Assembly (NCBI RefSeq): GCF_001457595.1 | Contig: NZ_LN831039.1 | Location: 6,120,001-6,152,000, forward strand | DNA from: Mycolicibacterium smegmatis | GTDB taxonomy: Bacteria > Actinomycetota > Actinomycetes > Mycobacteriales > Mycobacteriaceae | Length of the DNA stretch: 32,000 nt | Direction: 5' to 3' | Shown: positions 3,604 to 23,239 of the stretch, one piece after another | How positions within the stretch are numbered: position 1 is the stretch's first letter | How the letters are laid out: each line of letters starts with the position of its first letter | Made by a program: the position numbers and the translations under genes | The notes under the pieces: generated by a model | Database searches by the model: none | The model's input: only the letters and a program-made list of their open reading frames with translations | What the model was told of the DNA's origin: nothing

Positions 3604-3610
3604 TACGAAT

Positions 3611-3640
3611 CCGGCGCCCGTCCGGATGGACGGGCGCCGG
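3611..3640. terminator. Bidirectional intrinsic-terminator-like hairpin between convergent genes
   Basis: Perfect 13-bp stem CCGGCGCCCGTCC / GGACGGGCGCCGG with a GGAT loop, followed by TTGTT. It lies between the stop at 3603 (+) and the stop at 3653 (-). Confidence 0.65.
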
Positions 3641-3652
3641 TTGTTCGCACGG

Positions 3653-5741: not shown

Positions 5742-6910
5742 CGGCCCGCCTCCACCATGAACCCTGGCGGTATGGAGGTCTCGAACGTACGCGCCACCCG
5801 TAGCCCGTCGCGGTAGTCGATCTCGTACACGGCCCGGCCGGTGATGTCGTTCACGTAAGCGCGGTCGGCATCGACCTCGATCACCGGCGCCGGCCGGCCC
5901 TCGGGCAGCCGGTCGCCGAACAGCTCGACCGCGGCCGTCTGCCGACCGTCGGCCGTGTCGAACGCACGCAGCCGGCCGTCTGCCGTGAGCGCCAGGACCG
6001 CATCGCCCGAGACGGTGTTCGCCGCGACCACCTCGGCCACGTCCACCGACTTCCACGTGCCGCGGCGTGCGTCGAGAACCCACACCGTGTCTGCCGTGAT
6101 TCCGGCCAAAGTCGAACTCCCGTAGCGATACACGAGGGGGCCGGGGTGCGGCACACCAGCGGGCAACGGAATCGGCTCCGCGGTGACCCGGCCTGCTTTC
6201 TTCACGATCCGCACGGCGCCGTCGGCGCAGCCGAACACCACCTCACGGCCGATCGTCACGGCGCCCGTCACACCAGGGCACCGGCCGAGCTCGCGCGTTT
6301 CTGCGCTGATCTCAGAGCTGACCTCGACGACCGCGCCGTCCCGGGACACCGCGACCACGCTGTCACCCATCGGCGCGGCGGCCGCCACGTCACGCAACAC
6401 GTTGAACCCGTCGGCCTCGGTGATGCTCTGGCGCGCAACGCTGTTGCGATCCAGGACCTCGACGGTGCCGTCCTCGCGCTGCACGGTCGTGAGTTCGCGA
6501 CCACCTTTGGCGTCGACCGCCCGGCCGTCGACGCGGCCCGCAACTGCGGCAGGCTCGACGTAGAAGTGGGAATGGTCGCCGTGGTCGAACGTCCAGGATC
6601 CCGCATCCACGACGGTGAGCGCGTTCTCGCCGCGCAGATAGGCGAACCGCCCATCGCCGCTGACACCTCGCGTCGGCCCGAATGCCCCGAGCGGTGACTC
6701 GGATTCCTCGCTCGCGTCGTACACCACAGTGGCACCGGTATCCGGATCGACAAGGACCAGCCGGGTCACCGGCTCCGAGCTCTCGTGCGCATCGATGCCG
6801 GTATCGTCGGCCGAAGTCGGTGCCGAAGGCGTTGGCGTGGTTGACTTCTGCTCGACACCACAGCCCGCCACGAGCAGAACGCAGCCCACCAGGGCGACAC
6901 CTGCCCTCAT
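5738..6910 (-). CDS. Secreted lipoprotein, AztD-like (paralog 2), with an FDHGDHSHFY His cluster
   Basis: 390 aa from ATG 6910, which overlaps the permease stop (ATGA). Lipobox LVAGCG. Shares the block CPGVTGAVTIGREVVFGCADGAV with paralog 1 (CPGIHGETVVEGETVVFGCENGAL). Confidence 0.6.
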   Translation of the reverse strand: MRAGVALVGCVLLVAGCGVEQKSTTPTPSAPTSADDTGIDAHESSEPVTRLVLVDPDTGATVVYDASEESESPLGAFGPTRGVSGDGRFAYLRGENALTVVDAGSWTFDHGDHSHFYVEPAAVAGRVDGRAVDAKGGRELTTVQREDGTVEVLDRNSVARQSITEADGFNVLRDVAAAAPMGDSVVAVSRDGAVVEVSSEISAETRELGRCPGVTGAVTIGREVVFGCADGAVRIVKKAGRVTAEPIPLPAGVPHPGPLVYRYGSSTLAGITADTVWVLDARRGTWKSVDVAEVVAANTVSGDAVLALTADGRLRAFDTADGRQTAAVELFGDRLPEGRPAPVIEVDADRAYVNDITGRAVYEIDYRDGLRVARTFETSIPPGFMVEAGR

Positions 6911-7731
6911 GCCGCCGCCCGCCGCAACACCGCGGATGCTGCCGCCGAGCAGAAGAACAGTGCGACCGCGACGGCGGCGATGCTCGCGCCGCCTGCGGTT
7001 GCGGCATGCCAGGACAGCAGCAGGCCCAGCCACACCGACACCACCCCGACGACGGCGGCGAGCAGCATGATGCGGCCGATCGAGTGCGCCCACAGCGTGG
7101 CGGCCGCCGGGGGTGCCACCAGCAGGCCGAGTACCAGCAGCGTGCCGACCACATGGAAGGACGCGACGATCGCGACGGCGATCAGCACGGTCAGCACGAT
7201 GCCGGCCGATGCGGGGCTGAGCCCCAGCGTCGCGGCTTTCCGCACATCGAAGGTGGCCGCGATGAACGCCCGGCGTCCGACGAAGGCGATGACGGCGACG
7301 AGCACGAGCGCGCCGGTGAGCACAGCGATGTCACCGAGCCGCACGCCGAGCACGTCGCCGAAGAGGAAGGCGGTCAGATCGACCGCGTAACTGTTCGAAT
7401 GCGATACCACGATGACCCCGACCGCGAGCATGCCGACGAGGAGAAGGCCGATGCTCGTATCCGAGGAGAACCGCGCGGTTCGGCTGAGCACGGACACGCC
7501 GTAGGCCATCGCGAGCGCGGCGGTCAGCGCGCCGGCCAGCAGATTGCCGCCGAGCGCCGATGCCGCGGCCACGCCCGGCAGCATGCCGTGCGACATCGCG
7601 TCGCCGAGGAACACCGAGCCGCGTAACACCACCCAGGTCCCGACGATCGCGCACATCAACGCCACCAGCGACCCTGCGACAGCACCGCGCACGACGAGCT
7701 CCGAGCCGAACGGAGCAACCAACCAGTTCAC
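6907..7731 (-). CDS. Metal ABC transporter permease (AztB/ZnuB-like)
   Basis: ABC-3 family-like hydrophobic protein (VVLRGSVFLGDAMSHG...). I prefer GTG 7731 as the start, because the TTG 7767 extension (MKTIIINDKSL) is simply the translated Zur box. Confidence 0.85.
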   Translation of the reverse strand: MNWLVAPFGSELVVRGAVAGSLVALMCAIVGTWVVLRGSVFLGDAMSHGMLPGVAAASALGGNLLAGALTAALAMAYGVSVLSRTARFSSDTSIGLLLVGMLAVGVIVVSHSNSYAVDLTAFLFGDVLGVRLGDIAVLTGALVLVAVIAFVGRRAFIAATFDVRKAATLGLSPASAGIVLTVLIAVAIVASFHVVGTLLVLGLLVAPPAAATLWAHSIGRIMLLAAVVGVVSVWLGLLLSWHAATAGGASIAAVAVALFFCSAAASAVLRRAAA

Positions 7732-7747
7732 AGGTAAACTCTTATCA

Positions 7748-7769
7748 TTAATGATAATCGTTTTCAAAA
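7748..7769. promoter_or_regulatory. Zur box (box B) between the divergent aztB-like and aztA-like genes
   Basis: TTAATGATAATCGTTTTCAAAA fills most of the 45-bp intergenic region and shares the core ATGAYAATCGTTTTCA with box E. Confidence 0.7.
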
Positions 7770-7776
7770 GGAGTAC

Positions 7777-8490
7777 GTGGTGAGTGCCGTCCGGCTGAAC
7801 CGAATCACCTTCGGCTACAACAGGAATCCGGTGTTCACCGATCTGACGGTCGAATTTCCCCGGGCGGCTTGCACCGCGGTGACGGGACCCAACGGTTGCG
7901 GTAAGTCGACATTGCTCAGCCTGATCGCAGGTGTGTCACGACCACACTCCGGGACGGTCGAGCTGTGCGCCCGCGACGTGGCCCTCGCCGTCCAACGCGA
8001 CGAGGTCGCCCGGACGTTCCCGATCACCGTCGCCGAGGCGGTCATGATGGGTCGTTGGCGTCGGTTGGGACTGCTGCGCCGCCCATCGCGCGCCGACCGC
8101 GACATCGTCGACTTCTGGCTCACCGAACTGGGCCTCGACGATCTCCGCACGTGCCGCATGACCGAGCTGTCCGGCGGTCAGCGGCAACGCACCCTGTTGG
8201 CGCAGGCATTCGCCCAGCAGGCCCCGATCCTGCTGCTCGACGAACCGACCGCGAGCCTCGACGCCGACAGCGCGCAGACCGTCTACCGGCAGCTTCGCCG
8301 ACTCGCGAGCTCTGGGACCACCATCGTGGCCGCCACCCACGACGGCGATGCACTCGACCAATTCGAGCACCACCTGAGCCTTACCGGCCTGAGCGGACAC
8401 GCCGCGACGCTAGGCTCGGGTCGTGCCTCGACATGCGTTCAGCCCCAGCGAACGGCAAGCCGTATACCGAGCGATCACCGAACGCCGTGA
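7777..8490 (+). CDS. Metal ABC transporter ATP-binding protein (AztA/ZnuC-like)
   Basis: GTG start preceded by AAGGAG. Walker A GPNGCGKST, signature LSGGQRQR, Walker B LLLDEP. The 3' end overlaps the next ORF by 68 nt, so the true stop or the neighbour's start is uncertain. Confidence 0.85.
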   Translation: MVSAVRLNRITFGYNRNPVFTDLTVEFPRAACTAVTGPNGCGKSTLLSLIAGVSRPHSGTVELCARDVALAVQRDEVARTFPITVAEAVMMGRWRRLGLLRRPSRADRDIVDFWLTELGLDDLRTCRMTELSGGQRQRTLLAQAFAQQAPILLLDEPTASLDADSAQTVYRQLRRLASSGTTIVAATHDGDALDQFEHHLSLTGLSGHAATLGSGRASTCVQPQRTASRIPSDHRTP

Positions 8491-9082
8491 CATGCGCCAG
8501 TTCGTCCCGGGCAGCACCGTCTCCGATGAGGTCCTGAGCCGGTTGTTGCACGCCGCGCACGCCGCGCCCAGCGTGGGCCTCATGCAACCGTGGCGGTTCA
8601 TCCGCATCACCGACGACACCCTGCGCAGCCGGATCCACGCGCTCGTCGACGAAGAACGCGTCAACACCGCCGACGCACTCGGACCGCGCGCGCAGGAGTT
8701 CCTGGCGCTGAAGGTCGAGGGTATCCGGGAGTGCGCGGAACTGTTCGTCGTCGCGCTGGGCGAAGGCCGCGAACGGCACGTGTTCGGCCGCCGCACGCTG
8801 CCCAACATGGATCTCGCGTCGGTGTCGTGCGCGATCCAGAACATGTGGCTGGCGGCGCGCGCCGAAGGGCTCGGCATGGGGTGGGTGTCGATCTTCGAGC
8901 CGCAGCCGCTCGCCGAGCTGCTGGGTATGCCTGACGGCGCCGAACCCGTCGCCATCCTGTGCCTCGGCCCGGTGCCGGAATTTCCGGACCGGCCGGTCCT
9001 GGAGATCGAGCACTGGACGACAGGTCGTCCCCTGCCGGAGTTCGTATCGGAGAACGGCTGGCCCGAGCACGCGTCCGTGTAA
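8423..9082 (+). CDS. bluB: 5,6-dimethylbenzimidazole synthase (BluB, nitroreductase fold)
   Basis: 219 aa. The blocks ERQAVYRAITERRDMRQF, LLHAAHAAPSVGLMQPWRF, LKVEGIRE and MDLASVSCAIQNMWLAARAEGLGMGWVSIF closely match BluB as I remember it from Sinorhizobium. Confidence 0.8.
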   Translation: MPRHAFSPSERQAVYRAITERRDMRQFVPGSTVSDEVLSRLLHAAHAAPSVGLMQPWRFIRITDDTLRSRIHALVDEERVNTADALGPRAQEFLALKVEGIRECAELFVVALGEGRERHVFGRRTLPNMDLASVSCAIQNMWLAARAEGLGMGWVSIFEPQPLAELLGMPDGAEPVAILCLGPVPEFPDRPVLEIEHWTTGRPLPEFVSENGWPEHASV

Positions 9083-9105: not shown

Positions 9106-9891
9106 GTGCCGTCGACAGTCGATCTCAACGCAGACCTGGGTGAGAGCTTCGGCGTGTGGCAGCTCGGTGACGACGAGGCGATGCTCGGTCTCGTCACGAG
9201 TGCCAACGTGGCGTGCGGATTCCACGCGGGTGATCCTGCGTTGCTGCTGCGGACCTGCCGCACCGCGGCGCAGCGCGGTGTGGCGATCGGCGCACAGGTG
9301 AGTTACCGGGATCTGGCAGGGTTCGGCCGGCGCTTCATCGAGGTGGATCCAACGGACCTGGAAGCCGAGATCATCTATCAGATCGGTGCGCTGCAGGCCA
9401 TCGCACACGTCGCCGGGTCAGGTGTCGGATACGTCAAACCCCATGGCGCGCTGTACAACACGATCGTCGGCCACGAAGAACAGGCCGCCGCGGTGGCCGC
9501 CGCGGTGCACGCCGTCGACCCGGCCCTGCCGGTGCTGGGCCTGCCCGGATCGGCGTTTTTCGCCGAAGCACGACGCCTCGGGTTGCGCACGGTGTCCGAA
9601 GCGTTCGCCGACCGGGCGTACCGGTCCGACGGAACACTGGTGTCCCGGCGCGAACCGGGTGCGGTGCTGCACGATCCACACGAGATCGCCGAGCGTGTGG
9701 CGGCCATGGTGACCGACGGACGCGTCACGGCGGTCGACGGGACGGTCATCGACATCACCGTGGAATCTGTGTGCGTACACGGCGATTCACCCGGCGCGGT
9801 GCGGATCGCCAAGGCCGTGCGCGAGCGCCTTGAGGCCGAGCCGGTCGAGCTGGCCTCGTTCACCGGGGCGCGGTCCGAAACCGGCCGGTGA
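9106..9891 (+). CDS. pxpA: LamB/YcsF family protein (5-oxoprolinase subunit A, PxpA-like)
   Basis: 261 aa. The N-terminus [12 protein letters not shown]...[18 protein letters not shown] is the family signature. GTG start. No pxpB/pxpC partners are adjacent. Confidence 0.8.
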
Positions 9892-9905
9892 CGTACCGGA
9901 GGAGT

Positions 9906-10292
9906 TCAGTTACGTCGAGCCGCCCTGGTCAGGTTGACATCGGCGCGCAGCCGCGGCGACAGCGTCTGGCTGTGCCATGACCCGTCGGTGATCCAATCGC
10001 ACGCGGCCCGAAGGTCACTTTCGGTCGCGACGGGGCCGATCCACTTCGCCGGACCAATTGGCCTTCGGTCCGCGGTGCACGGTTGCAGCATCAGGATCAC
10101 CCCGTGTTCGCGGCGGCGCGTCGCACACGTCAGCCCGCCGAGCAGGCAGCGGGTGACCACCAAGACGCCATGAGGGCAATCGCCGATCACCCCCGCCAAG
10201 GTCGGGACCAACGAGGAGACCGCAGAGGTGGTGCAGCCCGTGCAGACCGCCACGGTGAAAGGCCGGGCGGTCGGACACCCATCCGGTTTCAC
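9906..10292 (-). CDS. Cys-rich hypothetical protein (8 Cys in 128 aa; possibly thioredoxin-like ferredoxin or metal-binding fold)
   Basis: GTG start preceded by CAGGAGGG. Contains CTGC plus six further Cys. Divergent from mspD across a region with Zur-like boxes. I do not recognise a family with confidence. Confidence 0.55.
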   Translation of the reverse strand: MKPDGCPTARPFTVAVCTGCTTSAVSSLVPTLAGVIGDCPHGVLVVTRCLLGGLTCATRRREHGVILMLQPCTADRRPIGPAKWIGPVATESDLRAACDWITDGSWHSQTLSPRLRADVNLTRAARRN

Positions 10293-10375
10293 AAACCCTC
10301 CTGATCGGTGCGACGGAACGCGCTGTCGTCGCAGCCGGTCGAGACGAGCACCACCGGCGTACGCATCGCACCCCT

Positions 10376-10396
10376 AATCGGTAACGGTTTTCAACA
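10376..10396. promoter_or_regulatory. Degenerate Zur-box-like element (box C')
   Basis: AATCGGTAACGGTTTTCAACA resembles the right half of boxes B and E (TAATCGTTTTCAA). It lies ~85 nt upstream of the Cys-rich gene. Confidence 0.35.
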
Positions 10397-10428
10397 GGCG
10401 GGTCTCACGCTACAGTGCTGCGGAGCCC

Positions 10429-10451
10429 TTGTCGAAAACGATTTTCAATAA
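10429..10451. promoter_or_regulatory. Zur box (box C) upstream of mspD
   Basis: TTGTCGAAAACGATTTTCAATAA. Its reverse complement TTATTGAAAATCGTTTTCGACAA is nearly identical to box A. It lies ~105 nt upstream of the mspD start. Confidence 0.65.
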
Positions 10452-10556
10452 GTCGGCCGACCGAGGTCCTGTGACACCACCGATCCCGCTGTCCCCCAAG
10501 AGGAACCACCGAAGTGTGCGTTCCGCCCATCCTCCCGAAAGGACATCAACCCAATC

Positions 10557-11180
10557 GTGCGCTACCTCGTCATGATGTTCGCTCTACTCGTGTCCGTGAC
10601 GCTTGTGAGCCCCCGCCCTGCCAACGCGGTGGACAATCAGCTCAGCGTGGTCGACGGCCAAGGTCGCACGCTGACCGTGCAGCAAGCCGAGACATTCCTC
10701 AACGGCGTGTTCCCTCTCGACCGGAACCGACTGACCCGTGAGTGGTTTCACTCCGGCCGCGCCACCTACCATGTGGCCGGCCCAGGTGCCGACGAATTCG
10801 AGGGCACGCTCGAACTCGGGTATCAGGTCGGCTTCCCGTGGTCATTGGGCGTCGGCATCAACTTCTCGTACACGACCCCGAACATCCTCATCGACGGAGG
10901 CGACATCACCCAGCCGCCGTTCGGCCTGGACACCATCATCACCCCCAACCTCTTCCCCGGCGTGTCCATCAGTGCCGACCTCGGCAACGGTCCCGGTATC
11001 CAGGAGGTCGCCACCTTCTCGGTGGACGTGAAGGGCGCGAAAGGAGCGGTCGCCGTATCCAATGCGCATGGCACCGTGACCGGCGCGGCCGGCGGCGTGC
11101 TCCTGCGTCCGTTCGCCCGGTTGATCGCCTCGACGGGCGACAGCGTCACCACCTACGGCGAGCCCTGGAACATGAACTAG
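10557..11180 (+). CDS. mspD: MspD porin (Msp-family octameric outer-membrane porin)
   Basis: 207 aa. The mature part is near-identical to MspA (…LTVQQ..TFLNGVFPLDRNRLTREWFHSGRA.Y.VAGPGADEFEGTLELGYQ.GFPWSLGVGINFSYTTPNILID…TTYGEPWNMN) but carries roughly 18 substitutions, the pattern I remember for MspD rather than MspB or MspC. Confidence 0.9.
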   Translation: MRYLVMMFALLVSVTLVSPRPANAVDNQLSVVDGQGRTLTVQQAETFLNGVFPLDRNRLTREWFHSGRATYHVAGPGADEFEGTLELGYQVGFPWSLGVGINFSYTTPNILIDGGDITQPPFGLDTIITPNLFPGVSISADLGNGPGIQEVATFSVDVKGAKGAVAVSNAHGTVTGAAGGVLLRPFARLIASTGDSVTTYGEPWNMN

Positions 11181-11190
11181 GTCAAGCGAA

Positions 11191-11219
11191 TCGGCCGCCA
11201 CGGGAATGCCGGCGGCCGA
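11191..11219. terminator. Possible hairpin between the convergent mspD and ctpC-like genes
   Basis: TCGGCCGCC / GGCGGCCGA forms a 9-bp stem with an 11-nt loop. There is no clear U-tract. Confidence 0.3.
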
Positions 11220-11284
11220 CATGGTGAACGCGCCGGTGGGCGGTACGACGACGTGTTGCACACCGGCAGCGTTCGCCGAACGCC

Positions 11285-13423
11285 CTAGTCGATTTCGTAC
11301 CGGATCAGCCGGGCGCTGTTGGCCACCACCGCAACCGACGACGCATTGTGCAATACGGCGGCAAGAACCGGCGACAACGCGCCCCCGGCGCCGACGGCGA
11401 GACCGATGGCGTTGACCGCGATGGACATCGCATAGTTCTGCTGTATGACGTCAACCGCGCGGGCGCCGAGATCCCGTACGTCGAGCAGCCGTCGCAGATC
11501 GTCACTGGCGAGCGCGACGTCGGCGGTCTCGACGGCAACGTCGGTGCCGCCCAATCCCATAGCGATACCGATGTCGGCGGCAGCGAGCGCGGGCGCATCG
11601 TTGACGCCATCACCGATCACCGCCACGGTGTGCCCTTCGGCGTGCAGCCGGCGCACCACCGCGAGTTTGTCCTCCGGCAGCACCTCCGCACGCCACTCGG
11701 TGATACCCAGTTCATCGGCCACGGCGGCCGCGGCGTCCGGATGATCCCCGGTGAGCATCACCATGCGGCGCACGCCGGCCGTGCGCAGTGCGCGCAGGAC
11801 TTCGGCGGCCTCGGGCCTCACCTCGTCGCGGAGGCTGATCAGGCCGACGAGCTTTCCGTCAACCGCCAGCAGCAGCGGCGTTTCCGCGCGCTTGCGGAGC
11901 TTGTCGACCCATGCCGCGGCCCGACTGGTGACACGCACCTTCTCCTGACGCAAGAGCGACGGACTGCCGAGAAGCAACGTTCGCCCGTCCGCCCTGGTCC
12001 GCATGCCCAACCCCACGAGCACCTCGCACTCTTCGTGCGGGGGTATCACGATGTGGCGCTCCCGTGTGGAACGGATCACGGCCTCGGCCAGCGGATGACG
12101 AGCATGGATCTCCGAGCTGGCGGCGTATGCCAGCACCTGCTCGGGTTCCCAGTCCTTGTGGAACGCAACCACATTGGTGACGATCGGCCGTCCCAGGGTG
12201 AGGGTCCCGGTCTTGTCGAACACCATCGCGTCGACCCGGCCCGCCTGCTCCAGGTGCGAACCGCCCTTGATCAGGATGCCGCGCCGGGCGCCGTTGCCGA
12301 TCGCGGCGCTGATCACCGTCGGAGTGGCGAGTCCCACCGCACACGGGCATGCCACCAGAAGCATGGTCATCGCGCGCCGCACGTCTCGCGTCACCACGAG
12401 GGTCGCGGCCGAGAGCAGGAACGAGGCGGGGACAAAACGCCGTGAGAAGTTCTCGCCGACCGTCTGGATGGGCGCGCGATGCTGCTGCGCTTCCTCGACC
12501 CGGGTGATGATGCGACCTATGGTGGTGTGGCTCCCCACCGCTTCCGCGGTGACGACCAATCGTCCGCGGACGACCACCGAACCGGCGTACACCTTGCTAC
12601 CCGGCCCGACCGCGACGGGAAGGTTCTCCCCGGTGATCGCCGACTGATCGACGATCGCCTCACCGTCGCACACCACGCCGTCGACCACGATCGCAACCTG
12701 CTCGTGTATCACGACCTGGTCACCGACGCGCACCCCGTCCACGGCGACCTCGATCTCGGTTCGGTCCGCGAGCCGCAGCCAGACGGTGTCCTGCGTGCCC
12801 TGGAGCAGATTGGCGATCGCCCGGCGAGTGCGCCGCAACGTCAGGTCCTGGAGGTACTCGCCAATGTTGAGCAGCCACAGAACCGTAAGGGCCACCACGT
12901 TTTCGCGCAGCACCAGACTCGCGACCGTGGCCGCCGACACCAGCACATCCGTTCCAGCGGAACGGTTGCCGGTGAGAGTTCGTAACGCACCCCGCAGGAA
13001 CGGGTAGCCGGTGATTATCGTCGCTCCCGTTGCCAAGGTGCGGCTGGTCGACCCCAAGAGCGGCGGCCGGGCAAATCCGTAGCGACGAATCCCCAAGAGA
13101 ATCAACGCCACAGCGCCGATCGCCATACGAACGATGTCGGCGTTGTGCACGTCGGCGGATCGGGGGCTACGACCGGGCACCAGGTGCCGGGCCACCCCCG
13201 CTGCCGCTGTCATGGCCGACCGCACCGCGTCACGGTCGCAGCGCCTGGGCGAGTACCACACCACCACGGATCCTGTTCGCGGATAGGCGTGTACGGCGCG
13301 AACGCCCGGCACCTGGTCGACGGCCTGTTCGATGGCGACCGCGCGCACGGCGTCCCCGCGGAACCACGGCGCGTGTACGCGCATGCGGCCGGCCGCGTCG
13401 GATACGACCGTCAGATCAGCCAC
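11285..13423 (-). CDS. ctpC: P1B-type heavy-metal-translocating ATPase, CtpC-like (Zn/Mn efflux type)
   Basis: 712 aa with TGE, the CPC transmembrane metal site (VACPCAVGLATP), DKTGTLT, HP (ARHPLAEA) and GDGVNDAPAL. The N-terminal HMA-like domain lacks CxxC, as in M. tuberculosis CtpC. It is preceded by a pacL-type gene. Confidence 0.85.
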   Translation of the reverse strand: MADLTVVSDAAGRMRVHAPWFRGDAVRAVAIEQAVDQVPGVRAVHAYPRTGSVVVWYSPRRCDRDAVRSAMTAAAGVARHLVPGRSPRSADVHNADIVRMAIGAVALILLGIRRYGFARPPLLGSTSRTLATGATIITGYPFLRGALRTLTGNRSAGTDVLVSAATVASLVLRENVVALTVLWLLNIGEYLQDLTLRRTRRAIANLLQGTQDTVWLRLADRTEIEVAVDGVRVGDQVVIHEQVAIVVDGVVCDGEAIVDQSAITGENLPVAVGPGSKVYAGSVVVRGRLVVTAEAVGSHTTIGRIITRVEEAQQHRAPIQTVGENFSRRFVPASFLLSAATLVVTRDVRRAMTMLLVACPCAVGLATPTVISAAIGNGARRGILIKGGSHLEQAGRVDAMVFDKTGTLTLGRPIVTNVVAFHKDWEPEQVLAYAASSEIHARHPLAEAVIRSTRERHIVIPPHEECEVLVGLGMRTRADGRTLLLGSPSLLRQEKVRVTSRAAAWVDKLRKRAETPLLLAVDGKLVGLISLRDEVRPEAAEVLRALRTAGVRRMVMLTGDHPDAAAAVADELGITEWRAEVLPEDKLAVVRRLHAEGHTVAVIGDGVNDAPALAAADIGIAMGLGGTDVAVETADVALASDDLRRLLDVRDLGARAVDVIQQNYAMSIAVNAIGLAVGAGGALSPVLAAVLHNASSVAVVANSARLIRYEID

Positions 13424-13439
13424 GGTACTCAGTGGTCAC

Positions 13440-13724
13440 TCAGTGGTCGTGGTCGTGGCCGGCGTCGCCCGCGGCGGGCGGCGGCACTTCCTCACCTATG
13501 CGTTCGCGCGCCTCTGCCATCACATCGGCGACCTTCAGTCGCGCCGACTCGGCTCCCACCTCGGCTTTTCGCGCTCCCCGCAGAGCCAACGCGGTCGTCG
13601 CCACGGCCGCTTCACGAACCGGCGCCTTGGCGACCGCCTTACGCAGCCCCTCGTAGGCCGCGACGCCGACAGCCCCGGTGACCACTGTCGTTGCTGCCTT
13701 GACCAGAAGTCCATGCCACACCAT
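13440..13724 (-). CDS. pacL: PacL-type (DUF1490) small membrane-anchored metallochaperone/scaffold with a C-terminal DAGHDHDH metal motif
   Basis: 94 aa with an N-terminal hydrophobic helix and Ala/Glu-rich helices. The C-terminus GHDHDH resembles the DLHDHDH tail of M. tuberculosis PacL1 (Rv3269). It lies immediately upstream of the ctpC-like gene. Confidence 0.75.
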   Translation of the reverse strand: MVWHGLLVKAATTVVTGAVGVAAYEGLRKAVAKAPVREAAVATTALALRGARKAEVGAESARLKVADVMAEARERIGEEVPPPAAGDAGHDHDH

Positions 13725-15563: not shown

Positions 15564-16355
15564 TCACCGCGGAGCCGCCTGTCCGGGTACCACCGTGATC
15601 TGAGGAACCCCCGCGGTATCGCCGATCGTGGCGTCAACCCCGTAGACCTCCGCGAGCAGCTCGACGGTCAGGACCTCACGCGGGGCACCGACGGCGACCA
15701 CCTGCCCGCGATCGAGCACGCAGATGCGGTCGCAATAGGCGGCGGCGAGATTGAGGTCGTGCAGCGCCGCGATGACCGTCGATCCGGTGGCACGCAGAAG
15801 GCGCAGCGTGTCGTGTTGATGACGCAGATCCAGATGATTCGTCGGCTCGTCCAACACGATGACATCGGTGTGTTGTGCCAGTGACCGCGCGATCAGCACA
15901 CGTTGCTTCTGCCCACCCGAGAGCCTGCCGAACGGCGCGTGAGCCAGATCGGCGATGTCGAGCGCCGCCAGTGCCGAGGCGATGATCTCGCGGTCGGTGG
16001 CGTTGTCGGATTCGAACGAGCGTTTGTACGGCGTGCGGCCCATGGCCACGATGTCGTACACGGTGAGCTCGAAATCCGTCGTCATCTCCTGAAGTACCGC
16101 CGCGACCCGCTGTGCGGCCCGCTTACGTGGCAGCTTCCACAGATCGGCACCGTCGATCAGCACATTGCCTGCCGTGGGGCGTTGCGCGCGGTAGATGGTG
16201 CGCAGAAGAGTCGTCTTCCCGGCCCCGTTCGGGCCGACGACCGCGACCATCTCACCCGGCGCGACACGCAGCGAGACACCGTCGACGACGGGTCGGTTGC
16301 GGCGCGTCGTCGACATCACCACCGAGATCCGGTGCAGCCGCACCTCCGCCGTCAT
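15564..16355 (-). CDS. ABC transporter ATP-binding protein, FepC/BtuD type
   Basis: 263 aa from ATG 16355 (ATGA overlap with the permease stop). Walker A GPNGAGKTT, signature LSGGQKQR, Walker B IVLDEP. Confidence 0.9.
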   Translation of the reverse strand: MTAEVRLHRISVVMSTTRRNRPVVDGVSLRVAPGEMVAVVGPNGAGKTTLLRTIYRAQRPTAGNVLIDGADLWKLPRKRAAQRVAAVLQEMTTDFELTVYDIVAMGRTPYKRSFESDNATDREIIASALAALDIADLAHAPFGRLSGGQKQRVLIARSLAQHTDVIVLDEPTNHLDLRHQHDTLRLLRATGSTVIAALHDLNLAAAYCDRICVLDRGQVVAVGAPREVLTVELLAEVYGVDATIGDTAGVPQITVVPGQAAPR

Positions 16356-17386
16356 GCCGGTGCCCTCCGTCGCATCAACCACAGGAAGAACGGTCCGCCC
16401 ACGAGCGCGGTGAGCACACCCACAGGCAGTTCCTCGGGAGCGCCGACGGTTCTGGCCGCGATGTCGCACACCACCAGGAACGCCGCACCCAGCAACGCCA
16501 CCGCGGGCAGCGCGCGCCGGTGATCCGCGCCGACAAGGAATCTCACCGCGTGCGGCATGATCAGGCCGACGAAGCCGATCGACCCGCTGACCGCGACCAT
16601 CGCACCGACCATGAGGGCCACCACCACGAACATCGCCGCGCGGAAACGATGGACATCCAGTCCGAGCGAGGCCGCGGCCTCCTCCCCGGTGTAGAGCAGG
16701 TTCAGCGGCCTGGTCACCGCGAGCAGGACCACGACGCCGATCAACACCACCACGGCCGGAATCCACACCGCGCGCCAGGTCGCGCCGCCGAGACCGCCCA
16801 GCATCCACCGCAACGCGGCCTGTGCCTTGTGCGGGTCGTCGGAGGTGACGATCAGCAGGCTCGCCACCGCGGAGAGCACCTCGGCGACCGCGACGCCGGC
16901 CAGGATTAGCCGCACCGTGGTCATCCGTCCGCCGGAACGCGCAAGGAAGTACACCGCGACCAGTGCCGCGAGCGCACCGACGAACGCGGCAACCGGCAGC
17001 GTGACCAGTTGCCGCACACCGGCCCCCGCGACCAGTACGGCGACCGCCCCGACCGTCGCGCCCGAGGACACGCCGAGCAGCATCGGATCGGCGAGCGGAT
17101 TGCGCACGACGGCCTGCAGAACCATCCCGCACGCAGCCAATCCGGCGCCCACGACCGCCGCGAGCACCACCCGCGGCAGGCGTGCGTCCAGCACGATCGA
17201 GGTGCGTACCGCGGGCCAGGTCTGCTCGGCCAGTGCCGGATGGATGCCGTTCAACACGATCTGCCACACCTGCCGCGGCGCGATCGGCACCGATCCGATC
17301 GCCACACCCGCGGTCATCACGAGCAGCAGGAGCACCACCAACGCGCCCACCACCAGGGCGTAGGGCAGCCGCGACCGGACCGTCAC
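16352..17386 (-). CDS. FecCD/BtuC-family ABC permease
   Basis: 344 aa, polytopic. The C-terminal VGVLTALVGGPFFLWLMRRR is typical of the FecCD family. The GTG start directly abuts the TAG of the upstream binding-protein gene. Confidence 0.9.
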   Translation of the reverse strand: MTVRSRLPYALVVGALVVLLLLVMTAGVAIGSVPIAPRQVWQIVLNGIHPALAEQTWPAVRTSIVLDARLPRVVLAAVVGAGLAACGMVLQAVVRNPLADPMLLGVSSGATVGAVAVLVAGAGVRQLVTLPVAAFVGALAALVAVYFLARSGGRMTTVRLILAGVAVAEVLSAVASLLIVTSDDPHKAQAALRWMLGGLGGATWRAVWIPAVVVLIGVVVLLAVTRPLNLLYTGEEAAASLGLDVHRFRAAMFVVVALMVGAMVAVSGSIGFVGLIMPHAVRFLVGADHRRALPAVALLGAAFLVVCDIAARTVGAPEELPVGVLTALVGGPFFLWLMRRRAPA

Positions 17387-18367
17387 CTAGAACCGGTCCG
17401 GATGTAGTTGCCGCGCCAGCGAATCCACCGCCTTGGCCACCCGCACACCCACCACGACCGACGACAGCGGCAGCACCGCGAAACGCCGGTGCACGATCGC
17501 CGGCACGTGGGCCAGCATGGGATGGGCGGTCAGGAACGCCTTCTTCTGTTCCGCCGACTCGTCGCCGTAGTCGTAGATCAGGATCACGTCCGGTGCTCGG
17601 TCGGCGAACTGCTCGAACGACACGTCGGCCCACACCTTCTGCACGTCGTCGAAGAGATTCACCGCGCCGGCGGCCTCGATCATCTGATTGCCGATGCCTT
17701 TGCCGCCGGAGGTGAACACCGACGCCTCCCCGCTGTCGTAGACCGCGACGCGGACCGGCTCGACGCCGTTCACGGACTCTGCGGTTTCCGCGAGATCGCG
17801 ATGCAGCAGGTCGAGCAGGTGTCGCGCGCGCTCCTCGACCCCGAAGATCTCTCCGATGGTGCGGATCTCCTCGTCCACGGTCGCCATCGTCGCGGGTTCT
17901 GCGCTGCAGTCCTCGATGTTGAGGTGTGTGTTGATGCCGGCGTCGGACAGGCGTTGTCGCGCGCGACCTTCCTTGTCGTCGAACGCGCTGTCCCAGCCGC
18001 CGTAGACGAAGTCCGGTTCGACCGTCAGCAGCGCCTCGTACGACGGGTACTCGTCGGCAAGGACCGGTATGCGATCGTAGGCGCCCTGATACTCGGGCAG
18101 GATCGCGTCATCGAGGAATGAGGTGCCCACCATGGAATCCTCGAGCCCCAATGCGAGCAGTACCTCGATCGCATGCTGGTTGAGTGCGACGGCGCGGGTG
18201 GGTGGCCGCTCATAGGTGGTGGTGACGCCGCAGTTGTCCACCGTGATCGGGAATCCGGGTGCGGCAGCCTGACCGGCGTCGGACGCTGAGGTACTGGTAC
18301 ATCCCGACGCCACCAGCGCGATCGCCGAAACCACCGACCAGCATGCGATCGAGCGCCGCGCCGCCAT
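17387..18367 (-). CDS. Class III (PF01497-like, BtuF/FecB type) ABC substrate-binding lipoprotein; corrinoid-binding inferred from the riboswitch
   Basis: 326 aa with lipobox LVASGC. Architecture and motifs of siderophore/cobalamin binding proteins (RAVALNQHAIEVLLALGLEDSMVG). Directly downstream of a cobalamin riboswitch. Confidence 0.8.
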   Translation of the reverse strand: MAARRSIACWSVVSAIALVASGCTSTSASDAGQAAAPGFPITVDNCGVTTTYERPPTRAVALNQHAIEVLLALGLEDSMVGTSFLDDAILPEYQGAYDRIPVLADEYPSYEALLTVEPDFVYGGWDSAFDDKEGRARQRLSDAGINTHLNIEDCSAEPATMATVDEEIRTIGEIFGVEERARHLLDLLHRDLAETAESVNGVEPVRVAVYDSGEASVFTSGGKGIGNQMIEAAGAVNLFDDVQKVWADVSFEQFADRAPDVILIYDYGDESAEQKKAFLTAHPMLAHVPAIVHRRFAVLPLSSVVVGVRVAKAVDSLARQLHPDRF

Positions 18368-18374
18368 GTTCTCT

Positions 18375-18546
18375 CCATTCCTCTCCGGGGAGATCCGCCC
18401 CAGACCCTGCGAGGTGGTGACTGCGGTGAGTGTCTGACTCTCGACGCCCCGCGGGCATCGATCACAGTGGCGGGACCGTGCCGGATTCGCACCGGCTTCC
18501 TCGATCCGCAGTCGCCTTCGGCACCGATGGTGTCATACCGCACGCC
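18375..18546 (-). promoter_or_regulatory. Cobalamin (B12) riboswitch
   Basis: The minus-strand RNA contains GGAAGCCGGUGCGAAUCCGGCACGGUCCCGCCACUGUGA (18500->18462), the conserved cobalamin aptamer core. It is followed by a B12-box-like GAGAGUCAGACACUC (around 18439->18430). The element ends ~20-60 nt before the ATG at 18367. Confidence 0.85.
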
Positions 18547-18801
18547 TCAGCGCGGACCCGCCATCGGCAACAACGCCATCTCGCGGGCGTTCTTGATCGC
18601 GGTCGCGACCTGCCGTTGCTGCTGCGGCGTCAAGCCGGTGACGTGGCGCGAGCGGATCTTGCCGCGCTCGCTGAGGAAGGTGCGCAGCACCGCGACATCC
18701 TTGTAGTCGATGGTGGTGACGCCGAGCGCCTCTAGCTGATTGCGCCGCGGTTTCTTGAGTTCAGTTGCGGCCGTGCGCTTTCTGGACTTCTTGACTGCCA
18801 T
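18547..18801 (-). CDS. rpsR2: Alternative (Cys-less, zinc-independent) ribosomal protein S18
   Basis: 84 aa from ATG 18801. [32 protein letters not shown] is the bS18 signature. No Cys. One-nt overlap with the rpsN2 stop (TGATG). Confidence 0.9.
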
Positions 18802-19106
18802 CACCAACTCGCCTTCCGCACACCGGGCAACTCGCCGCGATGCGCCATCTCGCGCACCCGCACACGGGACAACCCGAACTTGCGCAGATGCCCGCGTGGT
18901 CGGCCGTCGACGACATCGCGGTTGCGCAACCGCACGGGACTGGAGTCGCGCGGCAGCCGTTGCAATGCGCTGACCGCGGCCGCGCGCCGCTCTGGCGAGC
19001 TGGCCGGATCACGGATGGTCCTCTTGAGTTCGGCGCGCCGTTCGGCGTAGCGCTGCACCAGTTCTCGCCGCTGCTCGTTCTTGACAATCTTCGACTTCTT
19101 CGCCAT
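18801..19106 (-). CDS. rpsN2: Alternative (Cys-less) ribosomal protein S14
   Basis: 101 aa, [28 protein letters not shown]...[21 protein letters not shown]. It is the long uS14 form without the CxxC zinc ribbon. Confidence 0.9.
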
Positions 19107-19270
19107 CAGCGTTCCTCGCGGAACTCGACGTGGCGGCGCAGGACCGGATCGTATTTCCTGAGCACGATGCGGTCCGGGTCGTTGCGGCGATTCTTGCGGG
19201 TGACGTACGTGTATCCGGTTCCCGCAGTGGACCGCAGCTTCACGATGGGCCGGATCTCGTTGCGAGCCAT
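19106..19270 (-). CDS. rpmG2: Alternative (Cys-less) ribosomal protein L33
   Basis: Below the track's size cutoff. My translation is [54 protein letters not shown] (54 aa, no Cys). Start and stop overlap the neighbouring genes (TGATG on both sides). Confidence 0.9.
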
Positions 19271-19506
19271 CAGACCTTCTCCCCCCGTGCACGCATTCGG
19301 GCGACGACGGCCTCGATGCCGTCACGGTCGATCACCTTGATGCCTTTTGCGCTGACCCGCAGCCGGATTCGTCGTCCCTCCGACGGCAGGTAATAGGTCT
19401 TGTTCTGGATATTGGGGTCCCAGCGTCTCGGGGTGCGTCGGTGCGAATGCGACACCGAGTTCCCGAATCCGGGGCCGCGCCCGGTCACCTGGCAGTGGGC
19501 CGACAT
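19270..19506 (-). CDS. rpmB2: Alternative ribosomal protein L28
   Basis: 78 aa from ATG 19506, preceded by [36 protein letters not shown] is the bL28 signature. It has a single Cys, so no CxxC pairs. Confidence 0.9.
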
Positions 19507-19538
19507 TGACTCTCCTTCGTCGTGCGGTACCGTCGTAC

Positions 19539-19563
19539 GATAATGACAATCGTTTTCAATAAG
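19539..19563. promoter_or_regulatory. Zur box (box E) between the divergent altRP operon and the mrf-like gene
   Basis: GATAATGACAATCGTTTTCAATAAG lies 33 nt upstream of the rpmB2 ATG and 17 nt upstream of the 19580 ATG. Its core is almost identical to box B. Confidence 0.8.
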
Positions 19564-19579
19564 CAAACCGGGAGGTCCC

Positions 19580-20794
19580 ATGCGTACGCCGGTAGTGCTG
19601 GTCGCCGGACAGGATGACGCCCGCGGAACCGGTCGGGCCGTCGTCGAGGAACTGCTCAAGGCACCTGGCACCCTGCTCGTCAGCCACACCTTCGACGGCC
19701 ATGTCGTCGTCCGCACCGTGAGCAGCTCGGTCGACAGCTCTCAGTGGGTACTTGAGCTGGTGCACGGATGCGTCTCGTGCACCGTGCGTGACGATCTGCT
19801 GATCCTGCTTCGCCGTCTGCACCGGCGCGCCGACGTGACCCGCATCGTCGTGCAGATGATGCCCTGGCTCGAGCCCGAACCCGTGCGCTGGGCCATCGAC
19901 AACGTGCACGTACGGGTCGGCCCGGGGTACATCGACGGGCCCGCGGCCCGCGACGTGGAGGTGGCAGCCGTGGTGACATGCGTGGACACCGCGGCGTGGC
20001 TGGAGCAGGCGCTCGGCGAGGACGAACTCGCCGACGGCCGCACGGCCGCCCAGGTGGTGGTCGGGCAGGCCGAGGTCGCCGACGTCCTCGTGCTCGGCGA
20101 ACCGGAGGCAACGACACTGGCGGTGCTGCGCCGGCTTGCGCCCCGCGCACGGATCACGGTCGGGCCGGACCGCCTCGAGCTGGCCCTGGCCCACCTCGAA
20201 CCGGACACCCCACGCGGACGCGCGCTCTCGCCCCGCGATTCCCTGCTGGCCGGACAACCGCCGCTGACGGCCGACGGCGAAGTACGCATCGTCGAGTTCA
20301 CCGCACGGCGTCCGTTCCACCCGGTGCGGCTACATGCGGCCATCGACCTGCTGCTCGACGGCGTGGTGCGCACCCGCGGCCGCGCCTGGCTGGCCAACCG
20401 GGACGCCGAGGTCATGTGGATCGAATCAGCCGGTGGCGGACTGCGTGTCAGCACCGCTGGAAAATGGCTGGCCGCAATGAATTCCAGCGAGCTTGCCTAC
20501 ACGGATCCGCAGTGGCGCGCGCTGGCGGCTATCGACTGGGACCCGAGTTTCGGCGACCGGCACGTCTCGCTCGTCATGCTGGTCTGCGGCGCCCGCACCG
20601 ACGACATCCTCGACGCACTGCGTGGCGCCCTGCTCACCGACGCCGAGTTCGCCCGACGACAGGAGTGGCGTCACTACCCCGACCCGTTCGGCGACTGGCA
20701 CCAGGAACCGTGCGACGCCGACCAGGCTGCCCACGCCGCGCAATTCTCAGACGCTCGTCACCACCCCGACCCCCAGACAGGAGAGCAATCGTGA
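19580..20794 (+). CDS. mrf: COG0523-like protein with a degenerate P-loop; probable Mrf (MPY recruitment factor) ortholog
   Basis: 404 aa with a COG0523 layout, but the Walker A position reads [11 protein letters not shown] (no GxxGxGK[ST]) and the CxCC motif is GCVSCT. It is adjacent to altRP genes, as the Rv0106-type proteins are. The Mrf assignment comes from memory of the published M. smegmatis locus. Confidence 0.6.
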
Positions 20795-21039
20795 AACCCG
20801 GCATCCACCCCGACTACCACCCGGTGGTGTTCCAGGACGCCGCAACGGGCGCGCAGTTCCTGACGCGCTCGACGGCCACCAGCACCCGCACCATCGAATG
20901 GCCCACCCCCAGCGGGCCGAAGACCTACCCGCTGATCGTGGTCGACGTCACCAGCGATTCGCATCCGTTCTGGACCGGATCGGCACGGCACATCGACTCC
21001 GCGGGTCAGGTGGAGAAGTTCCGGCGTCGCTACGGATGA
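20791..21039 (+). CDS. rpmE2: Alternative (type B, Cys-less) ribosomal protein L31
   Basis: 82 aa from GTG 20791 (GTGA overlap with the mrf-like stop). [16 protein letters not shown]...HPFWTG...[11 protein letters not shown] is the bL31 type B signature without CxxC. Confidence 0.9.
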
Positions 21040-21061: not shown

Positions 21062-22007
21062 ATGCGGCTCAAACCCGGCAGGCCAGATCTGGCCGACCAC
21101 GCGCGGTTCTGCGACGCGCCCACGGCCACACCGGATTCCCCGGTCACCGTCACGTGGGCCGGTGTCACCACGCTTTTGGTCGACGACGGTGCGTCGGCGC
21201 TGCTGACCGACGGGTTCTTCAGCCGCCCCGGCCTGCTCACCGTTGGCCTGCGCCCGCTCGCGCCGAACGTGCCGCGGATCGACGGCTGCCTGGCCCGGTT
21301 GGGTGTGGACCGGCTCGCCGCGGTGCTGCCCGTGCACACCCACTTCGATCACGCCATGGACTCCGCCGTCGTCGCCGAACGCACCGGAGCGGCGCTGGTC
21401 GGTGGATCCTCGGCGGCGCAGATCGGCATCGGCGGCGGTCTGCCCGACGACCGGATCGTCACCGTCACCCCGGGTGAACCTGTAGCCATGGAGGCCTACG
21501 ACGTCACGCTGTTCGTCTCCGAGCACTGCCCGCCGGACCGGTTCCCCGGCGTCATCACCGAGCCCGTGGTGCCCCCGGCCAAGGCGTCGGCGTACAAGTG
21601 CGGTGAGGCGTGGTCGACGCTCGTGCACCACCGCCCGAGCGACCGTCGCGTGCTGATCGTCGGCAGCGCGGGCGCGGTTCCCGGCGCGCTGGCCGGGCAG
21701 CGCGCCGACGTCGTGTACCTGGGAGTCGGGCAGCTGGGACGGCAGCCCGAGCGCTACCTCACCGAACTACTGGACGCAGACCGTGCGCACCGTCGGCGCG
21801 CGCCGCGTGGTGCTGATCCACTGGGACGATTTCTTCCGGCCCCTGCACCGCCCGCTGCGTGCGCTGCCGTATGTGGCCGACGATCTCGACGCCACCATGC
21901 GCGTGCTCACCACGCTGGCCGCACACGACGGCGTCGCGCTGCACCTGCCGACGCTGTGGCAGCGCAGCGACCCCTGGATCGAGACCGGGAGCGGGCCCTG
22001 GCGCTGA
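21062..22007 (+). pseudogene. MBL-fold metallo-hydrolase with an apparent +1 frameshift near 21760-21772 (pseudogene or sequence error)
   Basis: The frame of 21062 encodes a plausible N-terminal ~235 aa including HTHFDH. After ...ERYLTE it becomes Arg/Ala/Pro-rich junk. The +1 frame continues with YWTQTVRTVGARRVVLIHWDDFFRPL...TLWQRSDPWIETGSGPWR*, which has high GC3 and is protein-like, ending at TGA 22005..22007. Confidence 0.55.
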
Positions 22008-22033
22008 CGCTGGCGCTCATCGCGCTGATCGTC

Positions 22034-23239
22034 GTGCTGACCTTTGCGATGGTGCGCCCCAACGGATGGCCCGAGGCCGTGGCCGCCGTGCCCGCAGCGG
22101 TCCTGCTCATCGCCCTCGGGGCGATCTCGGTGCACGACGCGGTGGACGAGGCAGGCCGCCTGCTACCGGTGGTCGGGTTCCTCGCGGCCGTCCTCGTGCT
22201 CGCGCACCTGTGCGACGACGAGGGCCTGTTCCACGCGGCGGGCACGCTGATGGCCCGGGCGAGCCGCGGGCACCCGCGCAAGCTGCTGCTGCGGGTCTTC
22301 GTCATCGGCGCGACCACGACCGCGGTGCTGAGCCTGGATGCGACCGTGGTGCTGCTGACGCCGGTGGTGCTCGCGACCGCACGCACGCTCGCGATCGCAC
22401 CCCGCCCGCACGCGTATGCCTCGGCACATCTGGCCAACTCCGCGTCGCTGCTGTTCCCGGTGTCGAATCTGACCAACCTGCTGGCGTTCACGGTCGCCGG
22501 GCTGAGCTTCGTGGAGTTCAGCGCGTACATGGCGATACCGTGGCTGGCCGCCGTGGCGGTCGAATTCGCGCTGCTGAGTTGGCTTTTCAGCGCCGAGCTG
22601 CGGCCGCGGCCGGTGCCGGAGACCGCGCCGCCACCACCGGAGGTGCCGGTGTTCGTCCTCGTGGTGCTCGGCCTGACCCTCGCGGGTTTCGCGGTGACCT
22701 CGCTGCTGGACCTCGCACCCGCGTGGGCCGCCCTGGCCGGTGCCGTGGTGCTCGGGATACGCAGTTTCGCGCAACGCCGCAGCACGGTGCGCGGCATCGT
22801 GCGCGCGGTCAACGTGCCGTTCCTGGCGTTCGTGCTGTGCCTGGGCGTCGTGGTGGATGCCGTGGTGCTCAACGGGCCCGAGGCGGTCATGCGCGATGTG
22901 CTGCCCGACGGCGACTCGCTGCCCGCGCTGCTGGGCTACGCCGCGATCGCGGCCGTGCTGGCCAATCTGGTGAACAACCTGCCCGCCGTGCTGATGCTGT
23001 TGCCGTTGGTGGCCGCGGCGGGCCCCGGCGCGGTGCTGGCCGTGCTGATCGGTGTGAACGTGGGCCCGAACCTGACCTATGTGGGTTCGCTGTCGAACCT
23101 GTTGTGGCGCCATGTCGTCCACCGGCAAGGTCTGGCGGCCAAGGCAGGCGAGTTCAGCCGCGTGGGTGTGGTCACCACACCGCTGACGTTGGTCGCCGCG
23201 GTCCTCGGGTTGTGGGCGGGCCTGGAGCTGTTCGGCTGA
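22034..23239 (+). CDS. ArsB/NhaD-superfamily (arsenical pump membrane protein-like) permease
   Basis: Polytopic protein with motifs SLDATVVLLTPVV, ANSASLLFPVSNLTNLL, VNNLPAVLMLLP and GVNVGPNLTYVGSLSNLLW. The start is uncertain (GTG 22034 or ATG 22049). The hydrophobic segment begins at ~21998, where only CTG codons are available. Confidence 0.75.
   Translation: MLTFAMVRPNGWPEAVAAVPAAVLLIALGAISVHDAVDEAGRLLPVVGFLAAVLVLAHLCDDEGLFHAAGTLMARASRGHPRKLLLRVFVIGATTTAVLSLDATVVLLTPVVLATARTLAIAPRPHAYASAHLANSASLLFPVSNLTNLLAFTVAGLSFVEFSAYMAIPWLAAVAVEFALLSWLFSAELRPRPVPETAPPPPEVPVFVLVVLGLTLAGFAVTSLLDLAPAWAALAGAVVLGIRSFAQRRSTVRGIVRAVNVPFLAFVLCLGVVVDAVVLNGPEAVMRDVLPDGDSLPALLGYAAIAAVLANLVNNLPAVLMLLPLVAAAGPGAVLAVLIGVNVGPNLTYVGSLSNLLWRHVVHRQGLAAKAGEFSRVGVVTTPLTLVAAVLGLWAGLELFG

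Follow-up and report, generated by a model that had tools for sequence, protein, structure and literature searches.

A cobalamin riboswitch and importer operon with its own promoter adjoins the Zur-regulated alternative ribosomal protein operon of Mycolicibacterium smegmatis

The subject of this analysis is a junction between two transcription units of Mycolicibacterium smegmatis, contained in a window of 32,000 nt; all coordinates below are positions in this window. On the minus strand an operon of four alternative ribosomal protein (altRP) genes, regulated by Zur and ending in rpsR2, is followed by a cobalamin riboswitch and the ATP-binding cassette (ABC) importer genes MSMEG_6064, MSMEG_6063 and MSMEG_6062. 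The importer operon has its own promoter, comprising an extended −10 element and a start at G18519, and this is active in zinc-replete medium. We consider it probable that the operon has two inputs, either this promoter or read-through from the altRP operon when Zur repression is lifted, and that both then pass through a single B12 OFF switch.

The first-pass annotation of this DNA had described a riboswitch at the end of rpsR2 and a transporter reached by read-through; what it observed is confirmed in part, and its interpretation is supported in part. The gene order and the Zur box of the window are identical to those published for MSMEG_6062-6071 (Goethe et al. 2020), so that published M. 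smegmatis data can be applied to it directly. Identity of the window to CP082846.1 is 99.98% over 10.26 kb, that to CP102342.1 and CP089233.1 is 99.6-99.7%, and its RpsR2 has 100% identity to a multispecies Mycolicibacterium protein entry. The components of the junction are each documented in public data; their connection, and the control of MSMEG_6064-6062 by B12, seem not to have been described explicitly. A literature search found no paper mentioning a cobalamin riboswitch together with rpsR2, and a single study that names MSMEG_6064 in its main text.

The promoter of the importer operon

It had been thought that no space was left for a promoter between rpsR2 and the riboswitch. This proves to be wrong. 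The 30-nt spacer between the rpsR2 TGA and helix P1 of the aptamer holds the extended −10 element TGACACCAT, and a published transcription start site (TSS) falls within it. Li et al. 2017 (Table S3) give for MSMEG_6064, on the minus strand, a coding sequence at 6131586..6132566, a TSS at 6132718 and a 5′ untranslated region of 152 nt. The leader is free of insertions and deletions across seven M. smegmatis-clade genomes; with the 152-nt untranslated region this identifies the published start as window position 18519. G18519 lies 3 nt ahead of P1 and 28 nt past the end of the rpsR2 stop codon, with a gap of 7 nt from the −10 element. The operon therefore has the mapped 5′ end and the −10 element at the proper distance that characterize an independent unit, the start coming from RNA sequencing (RNA-seq) without terminator exonuclease (TEX) treatment. 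The promoter DNA upstream of the −10 element overlaps the stop codon and last codons of rpsR2. Thus the fallback suggestion of the first-pass annotation, a promoter buried inside rpsR2, was close to correct, being right for the upstream promoter DNA and wrong for the −10 element, which is in the spacer.

The element is conserved. Eight leaders were aligned, from M. smegmatis (two lineages), M. wolinskyi, M. brisbanense, M. fortuitum, sp. 050232, M. phlei and M. flavescens. A18531, A18528, T18527 and G18519 are invariant in all of these, at a fixed distance from P1. M. fortuitum and M. brisbanense have the −10 hexamer TACCAT, M. wolinskyi has TACTAT, and M. phlei and M. flavescens have TGGCAGGAT. 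The last two species retain the −10 element and start with unrelated DNA upstream and no rpsR2, and hence the promoter element is part of the riboswitch-transporter module. The rpsR2 stop codon lies 2 nt upstream of the hexamer in M. fortuitum, M. wolinskyi and M. brisbanense. Compared with this group M. smegmatis has ~12 extra nt (GGCGTGCGGTAT, 18546..18533) between the stop codon and the −10 element; the TG of the extended −10 comes from this insertion, which coincides with C rather than T as the first base of the hexamer.

Is the promoter independent of that of the altRP operon? The cultures of Li et al. 2017 were grown in 7H9, which is zinc-replete, and no TSS for MSMEG_6065-6069 is listed in the recovered part of their table; the 5′ end at 18519 is therefore independent of the altRP promoter. 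Both Li et al. 2017 and Martini et al. 2019 call the operon MSMEG_6064-6063-6062. In the latter study it is operon #261, under a rule that the first gene of an operon needs a primary TSS of at least 95% confidence, and the libraries distinguish triphosphate ends. Our scan of the leader region for a consensus sigma-70 promoter found none. An empty scan was rejected as proof that there is no promoter, since mycobacterial SigA promoters need only a −10 element and lack a −35 (Martini et al. 2019).

The cobalamin riboswitch

When the whole window was scanned against Rfam there was a single above-threshold match, RF00174 (Cobalamin) at 18543..18408 on the minus strand, scoring 47.7 bits (E 3.8e-09) where the gathering score is 31.5. 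The covariance-model check proposed for this leader thus gives a value above the threshold. The orthologous leaders score 37-51 bits, and the element upstream of MSMEG_6064 is a genuine but ordinary cobalamin riboswitch. It does not start directly at the rpsR2 stop codon, as had been supposed, since P1 begins at 18516, 30 nt past the TGA. Over the first ~27 nt of its envelope the Rfam alignment forces the P1/P2 region of the model onto the sequence, and many of the pairs there are flagged as non-canonical.

A consensus structure was obtained by folding the aligned leaders with RNAalifold. P1 comprises 11 bp, formed by GGCGACUGCGG (18516..18506) paired with CCGCAGUCACC (18426..18416), and shows one compensatory pair and several wobble changes across the leaders. 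P3 has an AU to UA covariation in four of seven sequences. The P4 hairpin is GCCGGUGCGAAUCCGGC, and there is a conserved hairpin GCCGGUG..AAUCCGGC. P5 is small, and P6 is a single hairpin of variable length (0-40 nt) with compensatory changes, wholly missing in M. fortuitum and sp. 050232. The core is kept, comprising GGAA at J3/4, the GCCGGUG-containing hairpin, CCCGCCACUG and the B12-box region. No P7-P11/P12 extension is present between P6 and J6/3, and the leader thus lacks the peripheral extension that defines class I (adenosylcobalamin) riboswitches; the Rfam alignment skips 59 model positions. On its comparative fold it is a short, class-II-like form, and the Rfam score is modest because of this. 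P1 of the window has a C•A mismatch, C18514 opposite A18418; a G in two other M. smegmatis-clade genomes (leader position 159), and in most other species, restores the C-G pair.

The expression platform begins one nucleotide past P1. In the consensus fold CCUC (18414..18411) pairs here with GAGG (18383..18380) inside the Shine-Dalgarno sequence GGAGAGGA (18386..18379), enclosing a hairpin (18403..18385) with the loop CGGAUCU. The GGAU of this loop, read from the sequence, is complementary to GUCC of L5. By analogy, the platform is probably the usual arrangement of a translational OFF switch stabilized by an L5-L13 kissing loop. The metE and ppe2 switches of M. tuberculosis turn translation off by masking the Shine-Dalgarno sequence, and the accompanying loss of mRNA has been attributed to Rho termination or decay. 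If the M. smegmatis element works in the same way, on binding B12 P1 and the adjacent CCUC:GAGG helix would hold the Shine-Dalgarno sequence closed, probably aided by the L5-L13 loop-loop contact. Translation of MSMEG_6064 would be blocked, and the untranslated mRNA would probably be terminated by Rho or degraded. B12 control of MSMEG_6064 is thus predicted to be an OFF switch that probably acts on translation.

Transcripts from either input would carry the complete aptamer and should meet the same gate. The aptamer still forms when 41 nt of upstream RNA are included in the fold, and for this reason read-through transcripts should be gated like those of the own promoter. Ribosomes terminating at the rpsR2 UGA are ~30 nt from P1.

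The closest parallel is the ppe2 switch of M. tuberculosis, another short class-II-like RF00174 element with the same core, a P1, no P8-P12 extension and, in the predicted fold, a platform that masks the Shine-Dalgarno sequence and a likely L5-L13 contact. The M. smegmatis element differs in preceding an ABC importer rather than ppe2-cobQU or metE, and from the ppe2 switch in its variable P6 hairpin and in that no role for an upstream open reading frame is seen in the leader. Such a reading frame was considered and rejected on reading the leaders by eye: M. smegmatis has an ATG at 18378 that is out of frame, M. fortuitum and M. wolinskyi have the corresponding ATG in frame, and none is consistently present. 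The position of the predicted B12 OFF switch in the leader of an uptake system is that of E. coli btuB and of btuFCD-type corrinoid operons.

Probable read-through from the altRP operon

The scan of 18200..19700 found no intrinsic terminator-like site, bearing out the earlier statement that no terminator follows rpsR2. Read-through is possible because none separates rpsR2 from the importer unit. A second Zur box in front of the transporter was rejected, since the box search found none near 18368..18620; the boxes of the window lie only at 2440, 7749, 10433 and 19541. The published expression data (Goethe et al. 2020) show that the importer responds to Zur nonetheless. In Δzur RNA-seq MSMEG_6064, MSMEG_6063 and MSMEG_6062 are raised 27.4-, 8.7- and 6.0-fold, and with the chelator TPEN MSMEG_6064 is raised 6.5-fold. 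The four altRP genes are raised ~5000-fold in Δzur and 280-1040-fold with TPEN, and MSMEG_6071, past mrf-rpmE2 on the opposite flank, 28- and 5.2-fold, respectively. Thus induction of the importer tracks that of the altRP genes, and declines along the operon.

These gene-level fold changes support Zur-derepressed read-through into the importer. When Zur repression is lifted, part of the very strong altRP transcription would cross the junction, raising the importer mRNA 6- to 27-fold. The earlier proposal of read-through from the Zur-box promoter accordingly fits the rise of the three importer genes in Δzur or TPEN, though not with that promoter as the sole one, a TSS being mapped at 18519. Its corollary, that low zinc and low B12 are required together, is contradicted by the 5′ end at 18519 in zinc-replete 7H9. 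The connection to zinc has the look of spill-over between adjacent genes and not of a dedicated circuit. Tandem or internal promoters with read-through are familiar as sub-operon architecture, in which a downstream promoter likewise overlaps the end of the gene before it. The present case differs in that the leader common to both inputs is a riboswitch, so that they pass through one post-transcriptional gate.

How general is this arrangement? We compared locus contexts between the metallo-beta-lactamase-like gene and the pxpA-like/bluB pair, recovered by exact-protein look-ups; a scan of genome contigs with the binding protein as query gave only two mycobacterial loci. Both modules are present in M. 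smegmatis, M. fortuitum, M. wolinskyi, M. brisbanense and sp. 050232. M. phlei has the riboswitch-transporter alone, with no altRP cluster upstream, and M. cosmeticum has the altRP genes alone, with neither transporter nor RF00174 match. M. flavescens has a partial altRP operon in which a WhiB-family gene (PF02467, 71.6 bits; 3471..3827 of locus L030) replaces rpsN2-rpsR2, and so sits between rpmG2 and the riboswitch promoter. The riboswitch precedes the orthologous transporter in seven other Mycolicibacterium loci. Among 13 loci from Streptomyces, Actinomadura relatives and the like, which have no altRP genes nearby, 12 also carry it upstream on the same strand. The presence of RF00174 before the transporter across genera implies that B12 control is ancestral to the transporter. 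On this comparison of loci the zinc adjacency is a lineage-specific juxtaposition.

Other explanations of the junction must be weighed against two inputs and a common switch. If the transporter had no promoter and depended on Zur-box read-through only, it would need low zinc and low B12 at once; the tight spacing, the lack of a consensus sigma-70 promoter and of a terminator, and the response of the transporter genes to Zur would all fit. Yet the 5′ end is found in zinc-replete medium where the recovered table lists no altRP TSS, operon #261 required a high-confidence primary TSS (Martini et al. 2019), the −10 element and start survive in species without rpsR2, and the empty consensus scan is uninformative for promoters that need only a −10. 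This model is very improbable, and already largely refuted. It is unlikely, too, that the Zur effect on MSMEG_6064-6062 is indirect, whether by altered B12 or cobalt pools in Δzur derepressing the riboswitch or by another regulator. Goethe et al. 2020 did class MSMEG_6062-6063 as Zur-dependent but 'zinc independent', and the available part of that paper presents no transcript spanning the junction. However, metE, the other gene controlled by a B12 riboswitch, goes unmentioned in the main text, the fold changes follow those of the altRP genes (Δzur above TPEN) and fall from 27 to 8.7 to 6 along the operon, and MSMEG_6071 on the other flank behaves identically. A selected circuit, in which zinc starvation deliberately boosts corrinoid uptake along with ribosome remodelling, might be argued from the terminator-free head-to-tail junction kept in five of the species or strains compared (M. 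smegmatis, M. fortuitum, M. wolinskyi, M. brisbanense and sp. 050232), and from the position of the operon within the Zur-responsive island MSMEG_6045-6071 (Goethe et al. 2020). We think this improbable, because the modules are separate in M. phlei and M. cosmeticum and parted by a whiB-like gene in M. flavescens, the M. phlei transporter has no altRP operon from which read-through could come, and the induction is ~200-fold weaker than that of the altRP genes and equal to the spill-over into the unrelated MSMEG_6071.

A number of points count against the two-input reading that we favour. The absence of a junction-spanning transcript from the zinc study applies here as well. The 5′ ends of Li et al. 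2017 come from ordinary RNA-seq without TEX, so that taken alone 18519 could be a processed end, and the support drawn here from Martini et al. 2019 is an operon rule and not a TSS coordinate. On the side of the switch, single-sequence folding of 18340..18560 is no better than that of shuffles (z = 0.54) and is uninformative, and the pairs of the Shine-Dalgarno-sequestering helix and of the loop-loop contact are all invariant, without covariation, and rest on thermodynamics and conservation. The literature search found no data on the response of MSMEG_6064 to B12.

The importer and its setting

Pfam matches bear out the earlier reading of a class III binding protein, a FecCD permease and an ATPase downstream of the riboswitch (Table 1). 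Together PF01497, PF01032 and PF00005 in one operon make a type II (BtuCD/FecCD-type) importer set, with the composition of btuFCD-type operons. As a type, 'BtuFCD-type importer' is thus correct. The label goes no further than the type, as MSMEG_6064-6062 fall below every BtuF, BtuC and BtuD equivalog cut-off (40.8 against 234, 277 against 461 and 121.6 against 281, respectively). The best NCBIfam matches are models for a 'putative F420-0 ABC transporter', also below their cut-offs, and the closest PDB entries of MSMEG_6064 are 4mlz and 4n01, both uncharacterized binding proteins.

What, then, does it carry? The riboswitch and the bluB neighbourhood make a corrinoid the candidate substrate. 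The window has bluB (5,6-dimethylbenzimidazole synthase; TIGR02476, 241 bits) at 8423..9082 on the plus strand, ~8 kb from the importer. A pxpA/LamB_YcsF gene stands beside it at 9106..9891 (+). The bluB/pxpA pair directly adjoins the importer module or the altRP operon in M. phlei, M. flavescens and M. cosmeticum. In the mycobacterial B12 literature searched the candidate transporters are MSMEG_4558-4560 and homologues of Rv1819c, and MSMEG_6064-6062 are not among them.

The importer might instead carry an iron chelate (exochelin) or another metal chelate, a reading that we regard as possible but doubtful. A transposon sequencing (TnSeq) study found msmeg_6063 to be needed for growth in low iron without mycobactin, no BtuF/C/D cut-off is reached, and the orthologous operons of M. 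fortuitum, M. wolinskyi, M. phlei and M. flavescens end with a fourth gene encoding an FhuF_C domain (2Fe-2S, siderophore-iron-reductase-like). The M. smegmatis operon has no FhuF_C-type gene. Against an iron chelate stand the B12 riboswitch that precedes this transporter family across the Actinobacteria and the position of bluB, beside the module in M. phlei and M. flavescens and 8 kb off in the window. Moreover, the genes usually placed under B12 OFF switches are those for uptake or synthesis of B12 or for B12-independent isozymes.

Table 1. Features of the junction and its flanks. Positions refer to the window unless a locus is named.
Feature	Position	Strand	Basis or remark
Aptamer proper	18416..18516	−	comparative fold: P1, P3, P4, P5/L5, variable P6, B12-box region
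Expression platform	18379..18414	−	RNAalifold consensus
Extended −10 TGACACCAT	18527..18535	−	hexamer CACCAT 18532..18527, preceded by TGA (TGn)
TSS of MSMEG_6064-6063-6062	18519 (G)	−	Li et al. 2017 (Table S3) mapped onto window
MSMEG_6064, substrate-binding lipoprotein, class III	17387..18367	−	PF01497 match
MSMEG_6063, FecCD-family permease	16352..17386	−	PF01032, 325 bits
MSMEG_6062, ABC ATPase	15564..16355	−	Pfam ABC_tran (PF00005); gene call
altRP operon (MSMEG_6068-6065)	18547..19506	−	genes joined by ATGA stop/start overlaps
rpmB2	19506..19270	−	Pfam L28 match
rpmG2	19270..19106	−	Pfam L33 match
rpsN2	19106..18801	−	Pfam S14 match
rpsR2 (MSMEG_6065)	18801..18547	−	Pfam S18 match; TGA stop at 18549..18547
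Zur box TTATTGAAAACGATTGTCATTA	19541..19562	−	exact match, 0 expected by chance; serves divergent rpmB2 (altRP) and mrf promoters
mrf, COG0523 GTPase	19580..20794	+	NCBIfam MRF equivalog, 548 bits against cut-off 375
rpmE2	20791..21039	+	L31 gene call
FhuF_C gene, M. fortuitum	6767..7426 (locus L026)		
FhuF_C gene, M. wolinskyi	6779..7441 (locus L024)		
FhuF_C gene, M. phlei	6740..7384 (locus L028)		
FhuF_C gene, M. flavescens	6821..7471 (locus L030)		

The altRP operon is a typical mycobacterial Zur-regulated operon of Cys-poor (C−) paralogues with mrf. It has the same Zur box, the order rpmB2-rpmG2-rpsN2-rpsR2 and the divergent mrf-rpmE2, also Zur-regulated, in which MRF is a ribosome-hibernation recruiter. 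A Zur box stands at the promoter, Zur- and zinc-dependent expression has been published, and the L28, L33, S14 and S18 paralogues are poor in cysteine, with none in the translations of RpmG2, RpsN2 and RpsR2 and one in RpmB2. Sequence reading confirms the rpsR2 stop codon where the first-pass annotation had put it on the minus strand; the Zur box, which it gave as 19539..19563, is also real, and a 24-nt box, GCTTATTGAAAACGATTGTCATTA, matches that of MSMEG_6068 or MSMEG_6068/6069 in Goethe et al. 2020. The operon itself is no different here from its relatives; what can be added is that a downstream B12-regulated unit is not shielded from its transcription.

Some features lie outside these units. 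The remaining Zur boxes (2440..2454, 7749..7770 and 10433..10447; none expected by chance) precede genes of the zinc island, namely ZnuABC/CobW-like genes, an ABC ATPase at 7777..8490 and the mspD region. At 21766, within 21062..23239 (+), the window has a 1-nt insertion when compared with two further M. smegmatis genomes (loci L031 and L032), which frameshifts the orthologue of MSMEG_6071 (metallo-beta-lactamase-like) into an ArsB/CitMHS gene, giving one open reading frame of 725 amino acids; either a mutation in this strain or an error of sequencing could account for it. Offsets from mc2155 coordinates shift by ~1.47 kb between bluB and MSMEG_6059 (window ~9891..13440), and the strain seems to be without ~1.5 kb (the MSMEG_6055/6056 region) present in mc2155.

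Neither the annotation of the importer nor the point on its regulation changes the understanding of riboswitches or of Zur regulons. A more far-reaching possibility, to which we give little credence, is that a selected read-through couples the uptake of corrinoid or metal chelate to the zinc-sparing ribosome switch, and that MSMEG_6064-6062 rather than MSMEG_4558-4560 are the real high-affinity corrinoid importer. Were this true, zinc-starved M. smegmatis and the M. fortuitum group would raise transcription of an overlooked importer gated by a B12 riboswitch, and that importer would be the high-affinity corrinoid system of the fast-growing mycobacteria.

On the two-input reading the massive Zur derepression leaks into both flanks of the altRP region, into MSMEG_6064-6062 and MSMEG_6071, and this leak would explain the odd, weak membership of the Zur regulon that the zinc study gave to these genes. 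MSMEG_6064-6062 have been labelled 'lipoprotein / Fe uptake system'. With the conserved B12 riboswitch in their leader, they are a concrete candidate for the corrinoid importer that is missing so far in non-tuberculous mycobacteria.

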